59,395 nt of DNA from Candidatus Margulisiibacteriota bacterium (GCA_034723395.1 JAYEOW010000048.1:1-59395), one strand, 5' to 3'; positions 6,360-33,359 are shown, counted from the first letter of the stretch. Notes: generated from the letters alone by a model not told the origin. A program made the numbers and translations.

Positions 6360-6748
6360 ACTATGGAGAAAAGCGGATAGGCATTGCGGTTTCTGATCCT
6401 CTTGGAATTGCTGCACAACCGGTGGAAGTCATTGAAAATAGTGATCAAGTGATTGAGAGATTGAGTGATATAGTTAGCCGGTATGAACAGGTGGACGAGA
6501 TAATTGTTGGTCTGCCGAAAACTTTAAAAGGTGAGGTTGGGATAGCAGCGGAAAAGGTTTTGAAGTTTGTCGAAGAATTGAAAAAAGTAGTCAAAATTCC
6601 AATTGTTACCTGGGATGAGCGGATGACTACCGCGGCGGCGGAGAAAAATTTAATTGCCGCCGGGTTATCGCGCGGGAAGCGAAAGAAAGTAATTGATAAG
6701 TCAGCCGCGGCTTATATTTTGCAAAGCTATTTGGATGTGAAACGATGA
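6341..6748 (+). CDS. ruvX: YqgF/RuvX family nuclease
   Basis: LGIDYGEKRIGIAVSD, WDERMTT, IDKSAAAYILQSYLD; alaS-yqgF-mltG gene order. Confidence 0.95.
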   Translation: MRKLGIDYGEKRIGIAVSDPLGIAAQPVEVIENSDQVIERLSDIVSRYEQVDEIIVGLPKTLKGEVGIAAEKVLKFVEELKKVVKIPIVTWDERMTTAAAEKNLIAAGLSRGKRKKVIDKSAAAYILQSYLDVKR

Positions 6749-7854
6749 AAACCTCACCCCGCCCCTCGACAAGCTCGGGGCACCCCTCTCCATCAAAGAT
6801 GGAGAGGGGAATGAATTCGCCGAAGGCGAAGAAAGGGGTGAGGATTGGATTCTGGATTTTTGTGCTGGGATTTGGGATTTTAATTATTTTATTTGCCGCT
6901 TCTCTCCTCCAAGCTGCCAATCCTTTAGACCGGACACAGTACAAGATCGATATTCCAAAAGGCGCTTCAACTAAAACTATTCAAAGTATGTTGGAAAAGA
7001 AGAGTATCTTAAGGAGAAAAAGCAGTTTTTCAATTGCCAGTCGTCTTTTGAACGTTTCAAAAAATATCCAGGCCGGGCAGTATGAGCTCTCCCCATCGGA
7101 TACTTTATTTACTGTTTTATCGAAGCTGAAAAGAGGCGATGTTTACCAGCCCGAAGAGGTCCGCAAGATGGTTACCTTCCCAGAAGGAATGTCGATCTAT
7201 AAGATGGGGGAAGCACTCCGAAAGAACGGGATCAGCGATCCGGATAAATTCAAAGGATTAGTAAAAGAGGGGATTACCGAAGAGCTTAGAAACCGGCATT
7301 GGGCGATCTTTAAATATATTCCTTCTGAATCGCTGGAAGGATATTTATATCCGGACACATATTGGTTTTTTGAGAAAGGAGAGATTGAGGACCTGGTAGA
7401 GGTTATGCTGGCCCGGTTTGAAGAATTAGTTTTGCCTTTCTGGGCAAAGGCCAAAAAGGATACAAAATATTCGCTGCACGAGATCATCACCCTGGCTTCG
7501 ATCATTGAAAAAGAGGCGCAGAAGAAAGAAGAGCGCAAGATTATCTCTTCGGTCTATCATAACCGCCTAGAAAAGAATATGTTTATGGCCTCCTGTCCGA
7601 CGATTAAGTACGCATTAGATGAGCCGACCAAGAAGGTTTATTATGAGCAGTTAGACATTAAGTCACCTTATAACACGTATAAGAACAAAGGCCTGCCGCC
7701 GGGGCCGATCTGTAATCCTGGATTGGAATCAATTAAAGCGGCAGTTTATCCCGCAAAGACCAACTATTATTATTTTGTTGCCAAAAAAGACGGCAGCCAT
7801 TATTTTTCTGCAACCTGGGATGGACACCAGAAAGCTAAATATAATAACCGCTAA
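6745..7854 (+). CDS. mltG: Endolytic murein transglycosylase MltG (YceG), N-terminus encoded by a repeat element
   Basis: LEGYLYPDTY, LASIIEKEA, SVYHNRL, SPYNTYKNKGLPPGPICNPG; ATGA overlap with the ruvX stop. Confidence 0.95.
   Translation: MKTSPRPSTSSGHPSPSKMERGMNSPKAKKGVRIGFWIFVLGFGILIILFAASLLQAANPLDRTQYKIDIPKGASTKTIQSMLEKKSILRRKSSFSIASRLLNVSKNIQAGQYELSPSDTLFTVLSKLKRGDVYQPEEVRKMVTFPEGMSIYKMGEALRKNGISDPDKFKGLVKEGITEELRNRHWAIFKYIPSESLEGYLYPDTYWFFEKGEIEDLVEVMLARFEELVLPFWAKAKKDTKYSLHEIITLASIIEKEAQKKEERKIISSVYHNRLEKNMFMASCPTIKYALDEPTKKVYYEQLDIKSPYNTYKNKGLPPGPICNPGLESIKAAVYPAKTNYYYFVAKKDGSHYFSATWDGHQKAKYNNR
6752..6843. repeat. REP-like multi-hairpin element, copy 1
   Basis: Outer inverted repeat cctcacccc...ggggtgagg enclosing hairpins cccctcgacaagctcgggg, cccctctccat/atggagagggg and ttcgccgaaggcgaa. 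Confidence 0.85.
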
Positions 7855-7857
7855 ATC

Positions 7858-7885
7858 TGAAATTTTCCCCATTCTTTCCTGATAT
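7858..7885 (+). promoter_or_regulatory. Putative sigma-28-like promoter, copy 1
   Basis: tGAAA-ttttccccattcttt (15 nt)-CCTGATAT, 6 nt before the ATG at 7892; same motif at 12242 and 58238. Confidence 0.55.
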
Positions 7886-7891
7886 ATAGAT

Positions 7892-9064
7892 ATGAGCAAG
7901 AGTTTTTTATTAAGACGCAGAGGATTAATGGAGCGCCGGACAATAGTAAAAACCAGATTTCTGGAGAATAAGCAAAAAATTATCGAAAAGCGCTGGATCA
8001 AAGCCCTCCAAAAAGATTATAAAACCGCTAAAGTAGCTTTTAATAGGCTGCTTAAATTGAGTGCTTATCAATTGCCCGCAAGTATTCTGTTGGCGGCCAG
8101 TAAATGGGATGCAGATAAAGGGTCTTTATTAGCTGAATTTAATAAACTTAAGAAGATATTACCCATTGATCTTATTAGCAAAGGAGATATCGGTTCGATC
8201 TCAAAGTTTGAAAGCAAAGGAATTTTTGGGATAACAGATATTGGCGGGAGAAGAAACAATGAGGATGCAATTGCGGTTTTTAAACATAAGGGGAAGATAT
8301 ATTTGTTGTTAGCGGATGGGGTGGGAGGAGCAGCGGATGGGGAGATCGCCTCCCATTTAGCCCTTTTACACATGATGGTTGCGCTTGAAAAGGATCCGCA
8401 TAATCTTGACGCGGCCATTCGAAAAGCGAGTGATATGGTTAAGCAGGGGATAGAATCAACAGGAACTCCGGGGACAACGCTTGTTGTCGCCATGATCGAA
8501 AAGGATCTAGTTACCGTTGCTCATGTCGGAGACAGCCCGATCTTCCTGCTTAAGCGGAGCGGGGAGCTCCGGCTGTTGACTCTGCCGCATTCTCAAACCA
8601 TCAACATGGCAAGAATGATCAGGGATAAAGATGTAAAGGTATTTATTAAGGATGGTTTACCAGAGGAGATTAAAGGTGAATTAAATAAGATAGATATGGA
8701 TAAGCCGCCTTTCCCATTTAAGTTGTTATATCTAATTAATCAGGTGGAGGAATTCATGATAGGTTTTACACCTTTTACCCGCAGGATGGTGGGGGCGGTC
8801 AATAGAATTGTCGGGATCAAGGTTGGGGATGTTATCCCGATTTATAACTTTAGGATACAAAAAGGGGAAAGGCTCTTGCTTACATCTGATGGACTGGATC
8901 TGACATGGCATAACCGAAAGGGGATGAATTTGGGAAAAGTTCTGGTTGAGGCAATGAATCAAACTGATCGACTAGGCATTCGAATGCATAAATTTATGCA
9001 AGTAGTAAGATCATTGCAGGGTAGAGATGATGATAATGCGTCCGGGATAATATATGAAGCTTAA
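7892..9064 (+). CDS. PP2C/PPM-family Ser/Thr protein phosphatase with an unrecognised ~105-aa N-terminal extension
   Basis: TDIGGRRNNEDA, LADGVGG, GTTL, AHVGDS, LTSDGL and DDN motifs. Confidence 0.85.
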   Translation: MSKSFLLRRRGLMERRTIVKTRFLENKQKIIEKRWIKALQKDYKTAKVAFNRLLKLSAYQLPASILLAASKWDADKGSLLAEFNKLKKILPIDLISKGDIGSISKFESKGIFGITDIGGRRNNEDAIAVFKHKGKIYLLLADGVGGAADGEIASHLALLHMMVALEKDPHNLDAAIRKASDMVKQGIESTGTPGTTLVVAMIEKDLVTVAHVGDSPIFLLKRSGELRLLTLPHSQTINMARMIRDKDVKVFIKDGLPEEIKGELNKIDMDKPPFPFKLLYLINQVEEFMIGFTPFTRRMVGAVNRIVGIKVGDVIPIYNFRIQKGERLLLTSDGLDLTWHNRKGMNLGKVLVEAMNQTDRLGIRMHKFMQVVRSLQGRDDDNASGIIYEA

Positions 9065-9370
9065 TTATTCCCACTCGATAGTCGACGGCGGTTTTGAGGA
9101 GATATCATAAACTACACGATTAACTTCCGGGGTTTCATTTACAATCCGATTAGAAATCTTTTCAAGTAACTCATAAGGCAACCTCGCCCAATCGGCGGTC
9201 ATTGCATCTTTGGATTCAACTGCACGAATGGCAACCGTATTCAGATAAGTTCTTTTATCACCCATAACTCCCACTGTTCGAATTGGAAGAAGAACGGCGA
9301 ACGATTGCCAGAGCTTTTTATATAATCCAGCGCTTTTAATTTCGCCGACAACGATATCATCCACTTCCTG
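9065..9370 (-). pseudogene. Diverged duplicate of the 3' 306 bp of guaA
   Basis: Colinear with 10662-10967; protein near-identical (GEIKSAG vs SEIKEAG) with many synonymous changes; no 5' part. Confidence 0.92.
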
Positions 9371-9862
9371 TTTTTCGAAAATGCTAGTGTAGATGATGTG
9401 TCTGAAATAATGTTAAATAGATTCGAAGAATTAGTCCTCCCTTTTTGGGAAAAGGCGAAGAAAGATACAAGCTATACTCTGCATGAAATTATTACTTTAG
9501 CATCGATTATTGAGAAAGAGGCACAGAAAAAGAGTGAGCGGAAGATTATCTCATCCGTCTATCATAATCGTTTGAATAAAAAAATGTTCCTGGCAGCTTG
9601 CCCAACGATCAAATATGCTTTAGACTGGCCGACGAAAAAAGTTTACTATGAACAGCTCGATGTAAAATCCCCGTATAATACATATAAGAATAAGGGGTTG
9701 CCGCCGGGGCCGATCGCAAATCCCGGGATCGAATCGATTAAAGCGGCGGTTTATCCAGCTAAAACCAATTATTATTATTTTGTTGCAAAAAAAGACGGCA
9801 GCCACATTTTTTCCTCGACCTTTCAGGGGCATCAGCAGGGGAGACAAGAGAGTAAAAAATAA
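9371..9862 (+). pseudogene. Diverged duplicate of the 3' ~490 bp of mltG
   Basis: [21 protein letters not shown]... aligns with MltG FFEKGEIEDLVEVMLARFEEL from 7366 onward; lacks the N-terminus and TM anchor; fused to the guaA fragment. Confidence 0.92.
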
Positions 9863-9870
9863 AATTTAAG

Positions 9871-10422
9871 TTATTTTTCCAGGCAATCTTTAAATATTTT
9901 GAGAAGGTTTTTCTCGGGTGATATGTTTTCGAAATCTCTAAGCCACTTTTGAATATAATTAATATCAATAGATGGATTTTTTATCAAAATGCTTTTTACA
10001 TCTTCAATATCCCGGGCCCTGCCAGCGAATATTTTGTGGATTATGACATCTTCCGGAGAGGCAAAGTTTACTTTTGTTTTGCCGATCCTGATTTTTTTTG
10101 CGTTCTCTATGGCTTGCTGTTCGAAGGGGGTGAAGGAGAATATAAAATCAATCCGGATTTTACTTTTTTTGTCCTGGCTCGGCAGTACCCAGGTTTTTTT
10201 GGCAAAATCAACAGGGTTGTCGGGCAGAGGGTGCAATTTTAGTATTTTTAAAATATCCAGGATCAGAGATAATTTATCGGTCCCAATTCCCAGCGTAATA
10301 TCTATGTCCCTGGTTAGCCTGGGTTCTCCATATAATAAAACTGCTTGTCCGCCGATGATCATGTAGGGGATATCTGTTTTCCCCAAAGCCTTGGCGATTT
10401 TTTCAATTAGTTTTTCGAACAT
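9871..10422 (-). CDS. Nucleotidyltransferase-family protein (AbiEii/DUF6036-like)
   Basis: YMIIGGQAV...PRLTRDIDI (GG-x-DxD) and ASPEDVIIHKIFAGRARDIEDV. Confidence 0.8.
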   Translation of the reverse strand: MFEKLIEKIAKALGKTDIPYMIIGGQAVLLYGEPRLTRDIDITLGIGTDKLSLILDILKILKLHPLPDNPVDFAKKTWVLPSQDKKSKIRIDFIFSFTPFEQQAIENAKKIRIGKTKVNFASPEDVIIHKIFAGRARDIEDVKSILIKNPSIDINYIQKWLRDFENISPEKNLLKIFKDCLEK

Positions 10423-10598
10423 GAATTTAAAATTTTGGCGATCCTTAGATCTTTTTCAATTCCTTCGAGCGGATTTTTGGATGGAAGCACTTTTAGTGAT
10501 AAGGCTTCCTGCCATAAGGACTCGAATATCCTCATTGCTTCCTTAAAGCTTAGTTTTTCCTTGTCGAACATCCTTAGTAATTCAGGTTTCTTGATCAT
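10407..10598 (-). CDS. Small helical protein, probable partner (antitoxin-like) of the nucleotidyltransferase
   Basis: 63 aa, overlaps the downstream gene start; TGCTATAAT extended -10 just upstream. Confidence 0.6.
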   Translation of the reverse strand: MIKKPELLRMFDKEKLSFKEAMRIFESLWQEALSLKVLPSKNPLEGIEKDLRIAKILNSCSKN

Positions 10599-10661
10599 TG
10601 CCGGTATAAATTATAGCATAAGGTCCCGGAGGGTTCTATGAAGAATATCGGAAGTGAGCGC

Positions 10662-12218
10662 TCACTCCCACTCGATCGTCGAAGGCGGCTTTGAGGAGAT
10701 ATCATAAACTACACGATTAACTTCCGGGGTTTCATTTACAATCCGATTAGAAATCTTTTCAAGTAACTCGTAAGGCAATCTTGCCCAGTCCGCGGTCATT
10801 GCATCTTTGGATTCAACTGCACGAATAGCTACCGTATTCAGATAAGTTCTCTTGTCTCCCATAACTCCAACGGTTCGAATCGGGAGGAGAACGGCGAAGG
10901 ATTGCCAGAGCTTTTTATACAAACCGGCTTCCTTGATTTCGCTGACCACAATGTCATCCACTTCCTGGAGGATTTTTACTCTTTCTTTAGTTACTTCGCC
11001 AATGATCCGGATCGAAAGGCCCGGCCCGGGGAAAGGTTGGCGGGAAATGATTTCATCCGGAACGCCCAAGCCTCTGCCTAAAGCTCGAACTTCGTCTTTG
11101 AATAGTAAGCGGAGCGGTTCGATGAGCTTAAATCCCATTTTTTCAGGAAGCCCGCCGACGTTGTGGTGGGTCTTGATCTTCTTGGCGACTTTTCCGGTAG
11201 TCGTTCCTGGGACTGCACTTTCGATCACGTCCGGATATAAAGTTCCCTGAGCGAGATAGGGGATATCGCCTAATTTCTTAGCCTCTTCTTCAAAGGTGCG
11301 GATAAAATTCTCTCCGATTATCTTTCTTTTCTTTTCAGGATCAATTACTCCTTTGAGTTTGTCGAAGAATCTTTTGGCGGCATCGATATGAATAAAATTG
11401 ATCTTGAATTTACTGGTAAAGAGCTCATTTATTTTTTTGGCTTCGTTTTTGCGCATGAAGCCCTGGTCGATGAACATACAGGTGAGCTGATTGCCGATCG
11501 CCTTTTGGATCAGCGCCGCCACGGTGGTAGAATCAACTCCGCCGGAGAGGGCAAGTAATATTTTTTCTTTTCCGACCCTGGTGCGGATATCTTTTACCTG
11601 CTCTTCAATGAAATTGGCGGTGGTCCAGGTCGGTTTACAGTTGCAAACGATATAGACAAAGTTCTTTAATATCTCTATTCCTTTAGGGGTATGGACGACT
11701 TCGGGATGGAACTGAACGCCGAATAGTTTCTTTTCCGCATTTCCGATCGCGGCAAATTTCGTATTGTCGGTGTGGGCCAGCTGTTTAAATCCTTCCGGAA
11801 GGGATGCGACCGTATCACCGTGGCTCATCCACGACTTGATCTTGTTTGGCAGTCCAGCAAAGATGTTGGTCTCATCATCGATTAGAGGGTCGGCCTTGCC
11901 GTACTCTTTTTTCTCTCCCTGTTTTACTTCGCCCCCGAGCTCTTTGGTCATTAATTGAAGGCCGTAGCAGATGCCAAGGATCGGGATCCCGCAGTTCCAA
12001 AGCGCTGGATCGGCTTTGGGGGCGTCTTTTTCGTATACCGAAGCAGGGCCGCCGGAAACAATTATGCCCCTAACGTTTCTTTTCTTGAGTTCGGAAACCG
12101 GGATATCGTGGGGGAGGACTTCGCAGTAAACATTGCATTCGCGGACTCTTCTTGCGATCAGCATCGAATACTGGGCGCCAAAATCGAGAACAACTACGAG
12201 GTCATGCTTCTGTGCCAT
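10662..12218 (-). CDS. guaA: GMP synthase, glutamine-hydrolysing (start moved to MAQKHD at 12218)
   Basis: [50 protein letters not shown]. Confidence 0.98.
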
Positions 12219-12241
12219 ATGAGAGTATAACATAACTAAAT

Positions 12242-12269
12242 TGAAATTTTCAATAATTGCTGTCGATAA
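12242..12269 (+). promoter_or_regulatory. Putative sigma-28-like promoter, copy 2
   Basis: tGAAA-ttttcaataattgct (15 nt)-GTCGATAA, 6 nt before the ATG at 12276. Confidence 0.6.
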
Positions 12270-12275
12270 GGAGAC

Positions 12276-13058
12276 ATGAGTGCGGGAAAAGTTACAATGG
12301 TTGCTCATTACGGGCCCAAAAAGCAAAACTTAGCCAGGTTTATCCGGGCCCTCCAAAAAAAGGTAAAGGAAGGATTGGGAAGAAAATATTCCCGAGTTTT
12401 TAAGCCTTATCGGGTAGAACAGGTGCATGCGACGTTGGTTGGGATGGAAGGCGGACCGGGTGGGATAAACCGTAATTTCAATAATGCTTTAGAGCAGCGG
12501 AAACGTATGGATTTTGAAGGGTTGCTTCGTTTTATCCAGAATACCAATATTTTCCCGATGCGGATCCAATTTGGACGGATTTTCCCCTTCAGGGATTACG
12601 GCTTTAAGACGTCTAATGAGCATCCGGCTGACTGGACTTTTAGGTTTAGAGAAGCCCAGGTGATAGTGATCGGGTGGCCGGCAAAAAGAGGAAGCAGCCT
12701 GCAGGATCCCTTATGCCAGGATCTGGAATTGTTCAGGCGGGCGGTCCAGTCTTTTGGGATTCGGCATAAATTTCATGAAAAGCCCGGCGATTATGATAAT
12801 GATTTCTACATGGTTTTAGGAACTATCGATAGAGCCAGGATTACCAAGGGGGCCATGTCCCAATATGCTGAAAGGACCGCTGATCTTGAGCAGAAAGTTA
12901 GAAGAGAGTTAATGGTCAATCCGCCGCTTCGGATAAAAGTTGGAATGGAGGATATATCGGTTGTTAAATATGAAGATTCAAAATTACCCGTGAGAGGAAC
13001 GACTGCTTATCCGATTATAAATCTATCCGCATCACAAATTCAAAGTTTATTTGGATAA
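12276..13058 (+). CDS. Hypothetical protein, possibly 2H-phosphoesterase-like
   Basis: 260-aa ORF between guaA and guaB on the opposite strand; one HxT motif (QVHATLV). Confidence 0.65.
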
Positions 13059-16411: not shown

Positions 16412-16524
16412 CCTCACCCCGTCACTCACTTCGTTCGTGCCACCCCTCTCCATTTTCAATGGAGAGGGGAATGAATTCGCCGAACCTTGCCTGCCGGCAG
16501 GCAGGGGCGAAGAAAGGGGTGAGG
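16412..16524. repeat. REP-like multi-hairpin element, copy 2, with a nested 21-bp palindrome
   Basis: Same scaffold as 6752-6843, plus ccttgcctgccggcaggcagg inserted in the ttcgccgaa/ggcgaa loop. Confidence 0.85.
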
Positions 16525-16592: not shown

Positions 16593-18284
16593 GTGAGCAA
16601 AAAAATTACCCTTACGATCCTAGGTTTACTAATAATCGGGTTCTCTCTTTATGGATGTGGAAGGGTAGTAAATGTTGTTACCCCGGTTCATCCTTCATCG
16701 CAGACTTATGGGGTGATTATCGGAACGGTCAAGGATACTTCCGGTACCGCACTAAGCGCAGTTGCGGTAACCTCATCCGGCAGCAGCTCCGCCACCAATG
16801 CCCAGGGATGGTTCACGGTATCAAACCTAACCGCAACGACTCGAGAAGTGGTTGCCTTTACAAAATCGGGTTACGTTTCAAATCAAAAGGTCGTTGCTGT
16901 TTCGGCTGGCCAGTCTACTTTTGTAGATGTAAAAATGGGGGTTGCCGGCACCGCTCAAACGATGGATGCCATAACTGGTGGAACAATAACCGTCCAGACG
17001 AGTTCTGGCTTAAGCGCCGAGGTCACCATCCCGGCCAATTCTTTAGTTGATTCGTCAGGGACCGCTTTTACCGGGACTGCTCAAGTTCAATTAACCCCAT
17101 TTGATCCAACGGTTAATAACGATTTGGATGCTTTCCCGGGGAATTTTGAAGGGATAAATACCAGTGGGGTGACCCAGCAATTTAAGTCCTTTGGCTTTAT
17201 GGATATTAATATAACCGGGAGTGGGTCTTTGAGCCTGTCTGCTGGTAAAACTGCAACTGTAACTATTCCAGTCCCGGATTCAATGACCGTAGAAGCGGCT
17301 GCCCTGGGAACATGCCCAATGTGGTATTACGATACTTCGGATGGAACATGGAGGCAGGATGGCTCCGGGACCTACGATGCGGCAAAACAGGCCTTCGTCG
17401 GAACCGTTGACCACTTTTCCACTTGGAATTTTGATGTTTCTTTTACCCGCGCCTATATTAGCGGAAATGTCGTTGATGGAAACGGAAACCCGGTGCAGGG
17501 AGCGGAAGTAAGATGCCGCGGTGAGGGGTGGAAGTGGTCGCGCTGGGAGAGCGGTGAAACAAAGACGGGGACCGATGGCGCGTTTACAAGGATTCCAGTT
17601 GAGAATAATGTTACTTTTGAATGTTGGGCAGAGAAGGGTGGGAAGAAAAGTGCTGTTTCGGTTTTTGGGCCCTTTGCAGCCGCATCTGATAATGCGGTTG
17701 GAAATATCGTGTTAGATGCCCCGCAAATTCAATTTACCCTGGCCTGGGGGCAAAACCCGACCGATCTCGATACCCATTTAACTATTCCATCGACCGCGAC
17801 TACAACCCTGGCGGCTGAGCGCGGTCACCTTTGGTATCCTTATGCGGTTGATAAAGGTTATTCAAATCTCTCATCGACCTATCCTTATGCTATTTTAGAC
17901 ACAGATGATGTATCAAGCTATGGCCCGGAAGTCACTTCGATCTACCAATTGTTTGGAGGGACCTATCGCTATAGTGTCCATCATTTTTCGGGCAGTACGA
18001 CCATCTCCGATTCGAGCGCTAGTGTTGATTTAATTGTATCCGGTGGAGGGAGCGCGGGGATCTATAACTTTACCCCTCCAATTGGAGCGACCGGCGCAAA
18101 TGATGTTTGGATAGTTTGCGATATTGTGGTCGATAGCTCGGGGAATATTTCTGAGGTTAATACGATCGGCGATTTTCTGCATGATATTGCAGCGTTCTCC
18201 GGCGAGGCCTTTAGCCCGAATAGTGCGCCAACTTATCGCGGGCCGGCAGCTGGTTATTCGGTAAACTCGTTGCGTATCAAGTAA
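16593..18284 (+). CDS. Surface lipoprotein with carboxypeptidase-regulatory-like Ig domains and a YfaP/DUF2135-like C-terminal domain (start moved to the GTG at 16593)
   Basis: GAGGTG RBS, lipobox [14 protein letters not shown] and [16 protein letters not shown] repeats, [23 protein letters not shown]...DDVSSYGPE. Confidence 0.75.
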
Positions 18285-32265: not shown

Positions 32266-33359
32266 TGAAACATCTATTAGCTATCAATAAGATCGAAAAA
32301 GTTGGTCCTGTAACCATTAAAAAATTATGGGAGCATTTTGGTTCTATCGAAAACGCTTGGGAAGCTAACGCCGAGAATATCCTGCAGGTTGAGGGGATAA
32401 ATAAGAATGCGGCCGAAGCTTTTATTCAAAATAGAAATAAGATTGATTTAAATCAAGAATTAGAAGCTATTCGAAAAAGTGACATTAAAGTGTTAACTTT
32501 AGAAGACAAAAATTATCCTACAACACTAAAAAATATTTATGCCCCGCCGCCAGTTTTATATCTAAAGGGGAGCCTTCAAAAGCAAGACGAGAAAGCGATC
32601 GCGATTGTGGGGACGAGGAGGGCATCGAGGTATGGTAAGGAAATAGCTAAAAAATTAGCTTACGAATTGTCTTCTATGGGCTTTACCATCGTTTCCGGCA
32701 TGGCGGCAGGGATTGATACCGTCGCACACCAGGGGGCGCTTGAAGCTGGCGGTAGAACCTTGGCCATATTTGGGACTGGAGTCGATGTGATTTATCCTAG
32801 AAGTAATAAAGAATTGTCTGAACAAATAAGTTCCTCAGGAGCGTTAATCTCTGAATTTCCGATTGGCGCTGACCCAGATAAAGGTTCTTTTCCGCGAAGG
32901 AATAGAGTTATTTCCGGACTTTCGATGGGAACTATTGTAATTGAAGGAGACTATACTAGCGGCGCGATGATCACGGCAAAGTGTGCTTTGGACCAGGGAC
33001 GAGAAGTATTCGCCGTTCCGGGGAATGTTGAGATTGACCAATCCAAAGGGCCGCACTGGCTGATCAAGAATGGAGCTAAACTGGTCGAGACGGTAGATGA
33101 CGTTCTGGAAGAGCTTAATATGGTTCGACCAGTAATGACAAATGACAAATTAAAAATGACAAATGAATGTAGAAATTATTCGGAGTTATCTGATGAGCAG
33201 AAAAAAATTGTTGAAGTGTTGTCTCTGGAACCGAAGCATATTGATCGGATAGTGATTGAAACCTCGCTTGCGATCTCCCAAGTTTCAAGCCTCCTGATGA
33301 TGCTGGAAGTTAAAAAAATAATTCGCCAGCTCCCCGGCAAAATGTTCATTCTTTACTAA
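32265..33359 (+). CDS. dprA: DNA-processing protein DprA (start moved to the GTG at 32265)
   Basis: AIVGTR, VSGMAAGID, FPRRNRVISG, GREVFAVPG; C-terminal winged helix. Confidence 0.95.
   Translation: MKHLLAINKIEKVGPVTIKKLWEHFGSIENAWEANAENILQVEGINKNAAEAFIQNRNKIDLNQELEAIRKSDIKVLTLEDKNYPTTLKNIYAPPPVLYLKGSLQKQDEKAIAIVGTRRASRYGKEIAKKLAYELSSMGFTIVSGMAAGIDTVAHQGALEAGGRTLAIFGTGVDVIYPRSNKELSEQISSSGALISEFPIGADPDKGSFPRRNRVISGLSMGTIVIEGDYTSGAMITAKCALDQGREVFAVPGNVEIDQSKGPHWLIKNGAKLVETVDDVLEELNMVRPVMTNDKLKMTNECRNYSELSDEQKKIVEVLSLEPKHIDRIVIETSLAISQVSSLLMMLEVKKIIRQLPGKMFILY
33134..33167. repeat. Heptamer element read in frame within dprA
   Basis: aatgacaaatgacaaattaaaaatgacaaatgaa, 32/34 identical to the reverse complement of 1581-1614. 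Confidence 0.8.

Follow-up and report, generated by a model that had tools for sequence, protein, structure and literature searches.

The window analysed here is the whole of contig C48 (59,395 nt; GCA_034723395.1 JAYEOW010000048.1:1-59395) of a Candidatus Margulisiibacteriota bacterium whose genome, G000, is a 1.68-Mb, 55-contig, 97% complete metagenome bin. It contains a slot between the convergent 3' ends of mltG (YceG family) and guaA (GMP synthase), and in this genome the slot, taken to run from codon 208 of mltG to codon ~453 of guaA, is doubled head-to-tail. The two units carry cargo genes unrelated to each other, and the ends of both flanking genes occur a second time as diverged, undecayed pieces (guaA' and mltG') that are fused back to back. 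Such an arrangement may reflect the acquisition of a second, foreign unit in circularly permuted form, through a single exchange in the guaA 3' end, a reading to which we give a shade less than an even chance.

According to the open reading frame (ORF) listing and Pfam assignments, the locus reads mltG (full-length), a PP2C-type phosphatase gene, guaA' on the opposite strand, mltG', and then, again on the opposite strand, a nucleotidyltransferase (NTase) gene, a small ORF, and full-length guaA. The resident mltG spans 6745-7854 on the plus strand (PF02618, E 8e-87), and its portion at 7366-7854 is the one duplicated as mltG', with a repeat period of 2005 nt. Cargo A is the PP2C gene (7892-9064, plus strand; PF13672, E 2e-13), the stop codon of which directly abuts the stop codon of guaA' (9065-9370, minus strand), an intact piece comprising the final 101 codons and the stop of a GMP synthase gene (GMP_synt_C, E 9e-47). 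At 9370-9371, guaA codon ~453 is joined without any spacer and with 0-1 nt of microhomology to mltG codon 208, where mltG' (9371-9862, plus strand) begins, likewise intact, with the final 163 codons and the stop of a diverged mltG (YceG positions 117-273 of 275, E 1e-58). Cargo B lies on the minus strand and consists of a 63-aa partner ORF (gene 1; 10407-10598, ORF listing) that overlaps the start of the NTase gene (gene 2; 9871-10422), a DUF6036/AbiEii-like nucleotidyltransferase by Pfam. Full-length guaA, identified by the ORF listing and Pfam, occupies 10662-12326 on the minus strand, and its final 306 nt (10662-10967) are the counterpart of guaA'.

DNA comparison within the genome aligned guaA' with 10666-10967 at 90% identity (E 8e-114) and mltG' with 7417-7816 at 77% over the best 400 nt (E 1e-83). 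The protein homology of mltG' begins exactly at 9371 (FFE...), equivalent to 7366, and the homology of guaA' has its edge exactly at 9370, equivalent to 10967. The repeat periods thus give slot units of 2005 and 1597 nt with one novel joint only. There are no stops or frameshifts in either fragment, both retain open frames with possible GTG starts, and both full genes are intact; no other copies of mltG or guaA and no matching 5' halves were found in the genome. An earlier note on this DNA, made from the sequence alone, had described this gene order, a spacer-free fusion at 9370/9371 mapping to guaA position 10967 and mltG position 7366, fragments free of frameshifts and stops, and an interval between the convergent 3' ends that is present twice with different cargo, and all of these descriptions and their coordinates hold. 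No inverted repeats, hairpins, or promoter excess were found at the cargo borders. A 14-nt direct repeat at the joint (9370-9383 versus 10410-10423, 13/14 matches), whose partner lies at the NTase start codon and both copies of which hold the palindrome TTCGAA, was judged probably fortuitous because 5.7 kb contain eight comparable two-copy families of 14-18 nt (D6-D13), this one included.

The authenticity of the joint was assessed with Logan contigs of three sequencing runs, among which only X1, a brine metagenome and the probable source sample, contains the sequence. The X1 contigs are the product of a second assembler on the same reads and provide no independent data, and the window is almost wholly absent from runs X2 and X3 of the same study, an absence that counts neither for nor against the joint. 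One X1 contig spans 9200-10719 with 0 differences at a depth of 18.5, crossing the joint by 171 and 1349 nt; the flanking contigs cover 6815-9122 at a depth of 15.7 and 10797-12500 at 15.9, and a shared 137-nt piece (9093-9229) has a depth of 33.1, near the two-path sum of 34.2. The joint is unbranched in the k-mer graph and at chromosome depth, and the unit is about single-copy. The insert depth is 1.17x that of the flanks, which is within the expected noise and proves nothing. Because the parent sequences share at most 1 nt (G) at the joint, an assembler could not have created the join, which must therefore have been present in the reads. The concern raised in the earlier note, that nothing would span 9370/9371 if two strains had been assembled into a chimera, is thus not borne out, as an unbranched contig crosses the joint at flank-like depth, with the qualification that the evidence consists of contigs from a probable source run. 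A further X1 contig joint, running from 9098 to 10780 (depth 2.7, side 20), is off the 1597-nt register and was taken as the guaA of another organism.

An assembly artefact, in which a chromosome of mltG-PP2C-guaA arrangement and a separate molecule or strain had been stacked by the assembler over the shared guaA tract, would suit a 55-contig metagenome bin whose graph is ambiguous at that tract, as well as the insert depth and the presence of the sequence in the probable source run only. It is nevertheless very improbable: the 9370|9371 joint lies, without a shared k-mer and with an overlap of at most 1 nt, inside an unbranched contig at 18.5; no further mltG or guaA 5' half is present in the bin; a 1.6-kb circle lacking a replicon is unlikely to match the chromosome in copy number; and the copies in the bin differ on either side of an identical 80-nt run, a length below that of usual reads. 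A tandem arrangement is likewise favoured over a free circle by the equal depth and by the lack of any replication gene.

The paired gene ends are deeply diverged but not decayed. The guaA pair shows 32 differences over 101 codons, with 28 codons changed synonymously and 2 non-synonymously (dN 0.017, dS 0.58), and the mltG pair shows 139 differences over 162 codons, with 70 synonymous and 32 non-synonymous codons, a dN of 0.147, and a dS that is saturated and gives no estimate. The earlier description of the differences as mostly synonymous therefore suits guaA well and mltG only in the sense of a majority, and the neutral decay with dN about equal to dS that the same note had associated with an old local duplication is not seen. 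Over its whole length, mltG' is 71.4% identical in nucleotides and 80.2% in amino acids to the resident mltG, which equals its identity to the gene of G008, a genome of another genus, so that the two versions are separated by a genus-level distance and are not, as the note had supposed, two alleles of one locus. At columns that are invariant among relatives, guaA' is changed at 0/65 and mltG' at 1/40, the full genes behaving alike. When the amino-acid changes of mltG are polarised by G008, 7 fall on the fragment branch, 13 on the resident branch, and 12 are ambiguous. The terminal branch of the fragment is also not longer than that of the resident gene (0.13 versus 0.22 in a 21-row tree; 0.17 versus 0.13+0.055 in a 32-row tree). 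Synonymous saturation in fragments that are nonetheless unwrecked implies that they belonged to functional genes over almost the whole period of divergence and became truncated only recently; the event thus appears to be very recent relative to the divergence.

In the 21-row tree of MltG C-terminal regions, mltG' is sister to the resident mltG (97/89), followed by G008 (97/95). Source names among the protein relatives point to bacteria of the Margulisbacteria/Saganbacteria type. A full-length MltG of another organism, P0001, shares 88% identity with the resident protein; in the 32-row tree it joins the resident mltG (94/79) and leaves mltG' outside, within a clade of three supported at 96/92. 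Such a position of mltG' outside the pair is the topology expected for a xenologue, and the donor would belong to an unsampled lineage close to G000, about as distant as another genus.

These data bear on an older alternative, namely an in-place tandem duplication followed by divergence and cargo turnover, with the fragments maintained by selection as expressed short proteins. The tandem geometry with a single novel joint, the sister relation of mltG' and resident mltG in the 21-row tree, which is not rejected, and the open frames with possible GTG starts would all be consistent with it. However, it needs long purifying selection on two truncated genes simultaneously, both of which lack their N-terminal domains (mltG' covering YceG 117-273 and guaA' the C-terminal domain alone). 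It is also at odds with cargo genes unrelated to one another, with the grouping of P0001 with resident mltG, with the unlike third-position composition of the copies, and with a saturated mltG dS that is accompanied by no amino-acid excess or stops in the fragments. Taken with these points, an in-place origin is highly unlikely. The proposal in the earlier note that the slot received a foreign version in addition to, and not in exchange for, its own agrees with the finding that both versions lie side by side with fragments that had not decayed until recently.

The guaA copies additionally bear the traces of sequence exchange. Their differences are dense at the joint (12 in the first 48 nt) and sparser toward the stop, with difference-free runs of 35 and 80 nt followed by 4 differences in the last ~25-28 nt. 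The 80-nt run, 9093-9172, is identical to 10690-10769 of full guaA and is longer than expected from a permutation of the 29 third-position differences (P = 0.0008); the third positions of this tract are unconserved among 19 relatives (identity 0.39-0.49, as in the rest of the segment). The guaA distance within the G000 pair, 0.106, is below that of all 153 relative pairs (minimum 0.142), the corresponding mltG distance being 0.286, and in the 25 relative pairs with mltG ends 0.24-0.33 apart, the guaA ends are 0.168-0.271 apart. Since guaA is far closer than mltG predicts and contains the 80-nt run, part of guaA has been homogenised, either by the integration exchange itself or by later conversion. 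The longest identical run between the mltG copies, in turn, is at most 17 nt. Loss of the 1,597-nt NTase unit by recombination between the guaA direct repeats (90% identity, 80-nt perfect tract) is consequently plausible, whereas loss of the PP2C unit through the mltG copies is unlikely, so that the earlier suggestion that either cargo could be looped out is retained for the NTase unit alone.

Three routes of integration give the same final geometry: (a) a permuted circle or redundant linear molecule, (b) a one-sided join, and (c) integrase-mediated accretion. Under routes (a) and (c), both joint-side pieces should be foreign; under route (b), one of them should be resident, with foreign sequence in the 3' part of the full gene on the opposite side. 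At third positions that are A/T in one copy and G/C in the other, the fragment is the A/T copy by 44:29 in mltG and by 14:6 in the joint-side part of guaA (combined sign test on the direction of third-position GC content (GC3), p 0.022). The log-likelihoods are -61.59 for the circle model, -64.20 for the one-sided model, and -64.46 for the null, corresponding to a ratio of 13.6 for circle over one-sided. GC3 is 0.38-0.43 in the proximal part of guaA', mltG', NTase, and the small ORF, and 0.50-0.54 in the full genes, the genome reference of 745 long ORFs having a mean of 0.497 and a standard deviation of 0.064. Right up to the joint, the sequence on either side departs from the resident full genes, and the direction of GC3 suggests, only weakly, that both sides of the joint are foreign.

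One-sided integration of linear DNA, by homology-facilitated illegitimate recombination (HFIR) or template switching, into a resident mltG-PP2C-guaA locus is possible but clearly on the doubtful side. Homology within guaA or past it would have anchored a foreign mltG'-NTase-small ORF-guaA strand, the opposite end of which would have become joined illegitimately to resident guaA at 10967, in which case guaA' would be the old end of the resident gene and the 3' part of the present full guaA would be foreign. This route produces the identical final structure with an illegitimate joint, and additive arrays with retained 3' ends in type VI secretion system (T6SS) and Rhs loci have been ascribed to HFIR (PMC5361080). 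A second locus in G000 carries gene-fragment scars around inserted genes, and RecA, DprA, and ComEC are present in the genome, with dprA in the window (32469-33089) as the earlier note had stated; the DprA and ComEC families, however, also match in non-competent control genomes. HFIR joints usually contain about 3-10 nt of microhomology, and the 0-1 nt at this joint is below that range. The one-sided route moreover predicts opposite GC3 directions, whereas both pairs run in the same direction and it fits no better than the null, and it requires a separate later conversion for the identical guaA tract. HFIR, which the earlier note had invoked as a way of adding DNA from relatives, is not specifically supported here, given the scant microhomology and the weak compositional leaning to a permuted insert.

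The route preferred here is that of a circle or terminally redundant piece, with the one-sided route as a close rival and the integrase route as an enzyme variant of the circle route. Under the preferred route, the second unit would be the permuted slot of a related Margulisbacterium at roughly genus-level divergence, consisting of the junction-side guaA', the joint, mltG', NTase, the small partner ORF, and the terminal ~28 nt of the present full guaA. It would have arrived with the guaA'|mltG' joint ready-made, either as a small circle or as linear DNA with a guaA end at both termini. A single reciprocal exchange in the final ~300 nt of resident guaA would have inserted it, the exchange being either homologous recombination in or near the 80-nt tract or the work of a trans-acting recombinase at the end of guaA. 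The putative inserted unit would then measure 1,597 nt, or one period, and could be placed at 9173-10769, with its exact ends somewhere within the shared tract. In consequence, guaA would have been restored as an intact gene followed immediately by the NTase module, the resident PP2C gene would have been moved away along with the old guaA tip, and two dead end-pieces too young for decay would have been left behind, together with guaA direct repeats that may now permit loss of the NTase unit by recombination.

Several observations weigh against this explanation. The contig graph permits equally a tandem or a chromosome plus a free 1,597-nt circle, and the read evidence consists only of contigs from the probable source sample. 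The bin has 5 differences between 9173-9194 and 10770-10791 that the X1 contigs leave unseparated, the identical run being 80 nt in the bin but 137 nt in common in the Logan contigs, where the version of the bin has no contig of its own; this discrepancy could reflect conversion-tract polymorphism in the population or bubble removal by the assembler. The approximately unbiased (AU) test does not reject mltG' and resident mltG as sisters (p 0.43), so that the tree alone is no proof of transfer. A donor-type locus was not found among the contig loci retained for the NTase, and in a 5.8-billion-protein set the best full-length MltG among the 8000 candidates scored is 84% identical to mltG'. The best NTase relative (72%) lies on contig C3 of G006, in a different variable region and not in this slot, and its surroundings give no clue to the mechanism. 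With respect to composition, each GC3 pair alone is not significant (p 0.10 and 0.12), the 28-nt guaA tip runs 3:1 opposite to the model (n = 4), and the GC3 of PP2C is also low (0.422), which means that composition cannot tell which cargo is older. Finally, Ku was not found in this 97% complete genome, and a source for a 1.6-kb circle is not known.

The same interval is variable among relatives, in agreement with the variability that the earlier note had expected for it. Convergent mltG and guaA on one contig within 5 kb were found in 28 of 40 relatives and in three more (G004, G026, and G028). Among the 21 slots read, with gaps of 7-4602 nt, 7 are nearly empty (7-198 nt) and 14 carry 0.7-4.6 kb of cargo; PP2C, NTase, and the small ORF occur in 0 of these 21. 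Of the 19 cargo ORFs scanned, 9 have a Pfam family and none is an integrase, the cargo families including three IS200-like Y1 transposases, an MNT+HEPN pair (G040), GH16, NHL, propeller proteins, and a C39-like peptidase. The IS200-like Y1 transposase genes (174-177 aa) lie directly 3' of mltG in G002, G003, and G014 (L026:2091-2624, L030:1319-1843, and, for G014, L029:3466-3990), and that of G003 is flanked by 75-nt repeats of 83% identity.

A guaA-end motif matched 63 of the 65 genomes of the class (reversed control, 0), and two matches on the same contig and strand were obtained in G000, G014, G026, and G040. In G014, a 37-nt repeat (97% over 36 BLAST-aligned nt; L029 1142-1177/3359-3394) brackets a 705-aa ORF of no known family; in G040, an exact 28-nt repeat (L037 1220-1247/1972-1999) brackets the MNT+HEPN pair; and in G026, a 23-nt repeat (96%; L043 1695-1717/2780-2802) brackets a 74-aa ORF and a Bro-N/anti-repressor-like gene. 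These repeats are short and sharp-edged, the bracketed cargo adjoins full guaA, and no decayed extensions, mltG pieces, or integrases were found at the three slots. G000 shares this polarity, with the presumptive new cassette beside guaA and the presumptive older cargo toward mltG, and has a far longer repeat and an extra mltG piece; the common polarity was counted in favour of the preferred permuted-insert route. A second guaA end in G006 proved to be only a 141-nt overlap of two contig ends, with no duplication.

A further explanation is site-specific accretion at an attachment (att) site in the guaA 3' end, in which a tyrosine recombinase acting in trans would insert a circular element, in the manner of the tandem accretion of integrative elements and of integrase-less cis-mobilizable elements (CIMEs). 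The long guaA' and mltG' pieces would then be chromosomal DNA from aberrant excision in the donor. The sharp-edged guaA-end repeats that bracket cargo in G014, G040, and G026, the phage-type Bro-N/anti-repressor gene among the G026 cargo, the three tyrosine recombinases elsewhere in G000, and the stopping of both fragment copies at the same base at a locus beside parB (described below) agree with such a process. Yet none of the four slots contains an integrase, the G000 repeat, at 306 nt with a further 492 nt from the opposite flank, is far longer than an att core, and the 28-nt guaA tip has 4 differences, identity starting only inside of it, so that accretion of this kind is unlikely as the origin of the G000 unit. 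The statement in the earlier note that no integrase was involved stands for the slot itself, where Pfam and defence-family scans of the slot genes found no integrase, transposase, or recombinase family, but has to be qualified by the three tyrosine recombinases of the genome, all outside the slot, and by the att-like 23-37-nt guaA-end repeats in relatives.

A second locus of G000, C40:29440-32761 (L216), contains the opening ~105-110 nt of an 85-aa gene beside parB in three direct copies (77-85% identity), which bracket an AbiEii/AbiEi pair and an AAA_14/DUF4143 ATPase. The two truncated copies lose homology at the very same base, and this fixed edge leans to a site-specific step at the parB locus. 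Together, the two loci suggest that the gain of a cassette along with a diverged copy of the end of a neighbouring gene is recurrent in G000. Two of the other nearby repeats listed in a self-comparison of the genome (C15 and C53) proved to be whole-gene paralogues with no end-pieces. Exact 127-nt repeats were also observed (C15:8365-8491 = 17005-17131; C4:105141-105267 = 105248-105374), one at a contig end; these resemble assembly overlaps of k-mer length and are presumably not biological.

The cargo genes differ in their distribution. The NTase was scanned against metagenome_contigs and genome_contigs, and 80 loci from each were retained. In 148 of these 160 loci, from many phyla, the NTase is immediately preceded on its own strand by a homologue of the small ORF, and in none of the 160 does the NTase lie between mltG and guaA; at locus L172, mltG is ~0.9 kb from the NTase on the other side, and two loci have weak amidotransferase matches. 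NTase relatives occur in 45 of the 65 genomes of the class (G000 included), only one of them above 37% identity. By their family names only, NTase and the small ORF may form a promiscuous toxin-antitoxin-like module, and the occurrence of cargo B as a mobile two-gene module in many phyla was counted in favour of the permuted-insert route. PP2C has only distant relatives in the class, the best being a 41% paralogue in G000 itself. Matches in PADLOC are weak (PP2C to PDC-M21C, E 1.5e-6; NTase to AbiEii, E 0.005), and PHROGs gave no match for the NTase or the small ORF.

At the outer edges of the locus, an interspersed palindromic repeat of ~100 nt lies at 6750-6850, with a second partial copy at 16412-16484 and matches on 15 other contigs (72-94%). 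It overlaps the listed 5' end of mltG (the first ~100 nt of the ORF), the true start of which is probably downstream of it. The depth of run X1 over this repeat is 72.7 versus ~16 around it, with indels and many loose ends, and the repeat looks like an element of the REP (repetitive extragenic palindromic) or MITE (miniature inverted-repeat transposable element) type. On the other side, a 260-aa ORF at 12276-13058 that matches no Pfam family runs divergently from guaA, the two overlapping at the start of the former and the listed 5' end of the latter.

The locus works like several known processes of additive integration and fits none of them fully. T6SS effector-immunity arrays of Vibrio cholerae and the orphan 3' ends of Rhs and contact-dependent inhibition (CDI) loci have been proposed to arise via HFIR (PMC5361080). 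Sequential displacement in such arrays resembles the present case in that an acquired module lies beside a conserved gene, with the older module and the displaced 3' end kept downstream, and in that the arrays are integrase-free and hold copies from different lineages that did not arise by duplication. The present locus differs from them in that its flanks are housekeeping genes (guaA and mltG) and not polymorphic toxins, it preserves an end-piece of each flanking gene with the two joined back to back, and its composition leans to a circularly permuted insert.

Tyrosine-integrase elements and integrase-less CIMEs at the guaA 3' end generate direct repeats of the gene end (PMC4701971, PMC5704250), those of integrative elements being 12-54 bp and comprising the exact 3' end of guaA (PMC4701971). 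Tandem accretion and CIMEs share with G000 the guaA 3'-end target, the gene-end direct repeats, the stacked cargo, and integrase-less units, and the 23-37-nt repeats of G014, G026, and G040 fit this signature. In contrast, the G000 repeat is 306 nt at 90% identity and not 12-54 bp, the insert includes 492 nt of the far-side gene, and, unlike the integrative elements described there, the G000 slot has no integrase inside or adjoining it.

Transformation with linear, junction-bearing DNA yields tandem duplications in Acinetobacter baylyi (EASy bridging fragment; PMC12455638), and pneumococcal merodiploids arise by tandem duplication through transformation (PMC3784515); these laboratory results were counted in favour of the permuted-insert route. 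The likeness to Campbell-type insertion-duplication lies in the single exchange (two if the DNA is terminally redundant) and in a novel joint supplied by the incoming DNA; those cases involve laboratory or self-DNA with near-identical arms, whereas the arms here are 71-90% identical and the cargo would be from another lineage.

Minimal mobile elements of Neisseria consist of variable cargo between conserved flanks that is exchanged by homologous recombination (double crossover). The slot resembles them in being flanked by core genes that may act as homology arms and in holding unrelated cargo across genomes, but differs in that the second version here was added and did not replace the first, and in that the present survey extends across genera and not strains. 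In full-text literature searches, no account emerged of a core-flanked slot that had been doubled with its two neighbouring gene ends joined back to back, or of such events in Margulisbacteria.

A broader scheme of lineage-wide accretion, which we regard as doubtful at this stage, would connect these observations. Margulisbacteria would gain small defence and toxin-antitoxin cassettes at conserved gene ends serving as attachment sites (the guaA 3' end and the 5' end of the small gene beside parB); small circles would carry a copy of the gene end, and host recombination or a recombinase in trans would insert them, with no cassette-borne integrase. The G000 unit would then be a fresh capture before trimming, and the 23-37-nt repeats the mature state. 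The doubled slot is in any case a legible record of gene gain by a small, streamlined, uncultivated bacterium with no mobile-element machinery in sight: because the incoming DNA kept intact pieces of both neighbouring genes, its origin, approximate age, and geometry can be read from the sequence. If the guaA-end and parB patterns are one process, it may be a main route of accessory-gene turnover in a phylum without cultured members, and diverged but undecayed end-pieces of core genes would provide a simple signature for recognising it in other metagenome-derived genomes.

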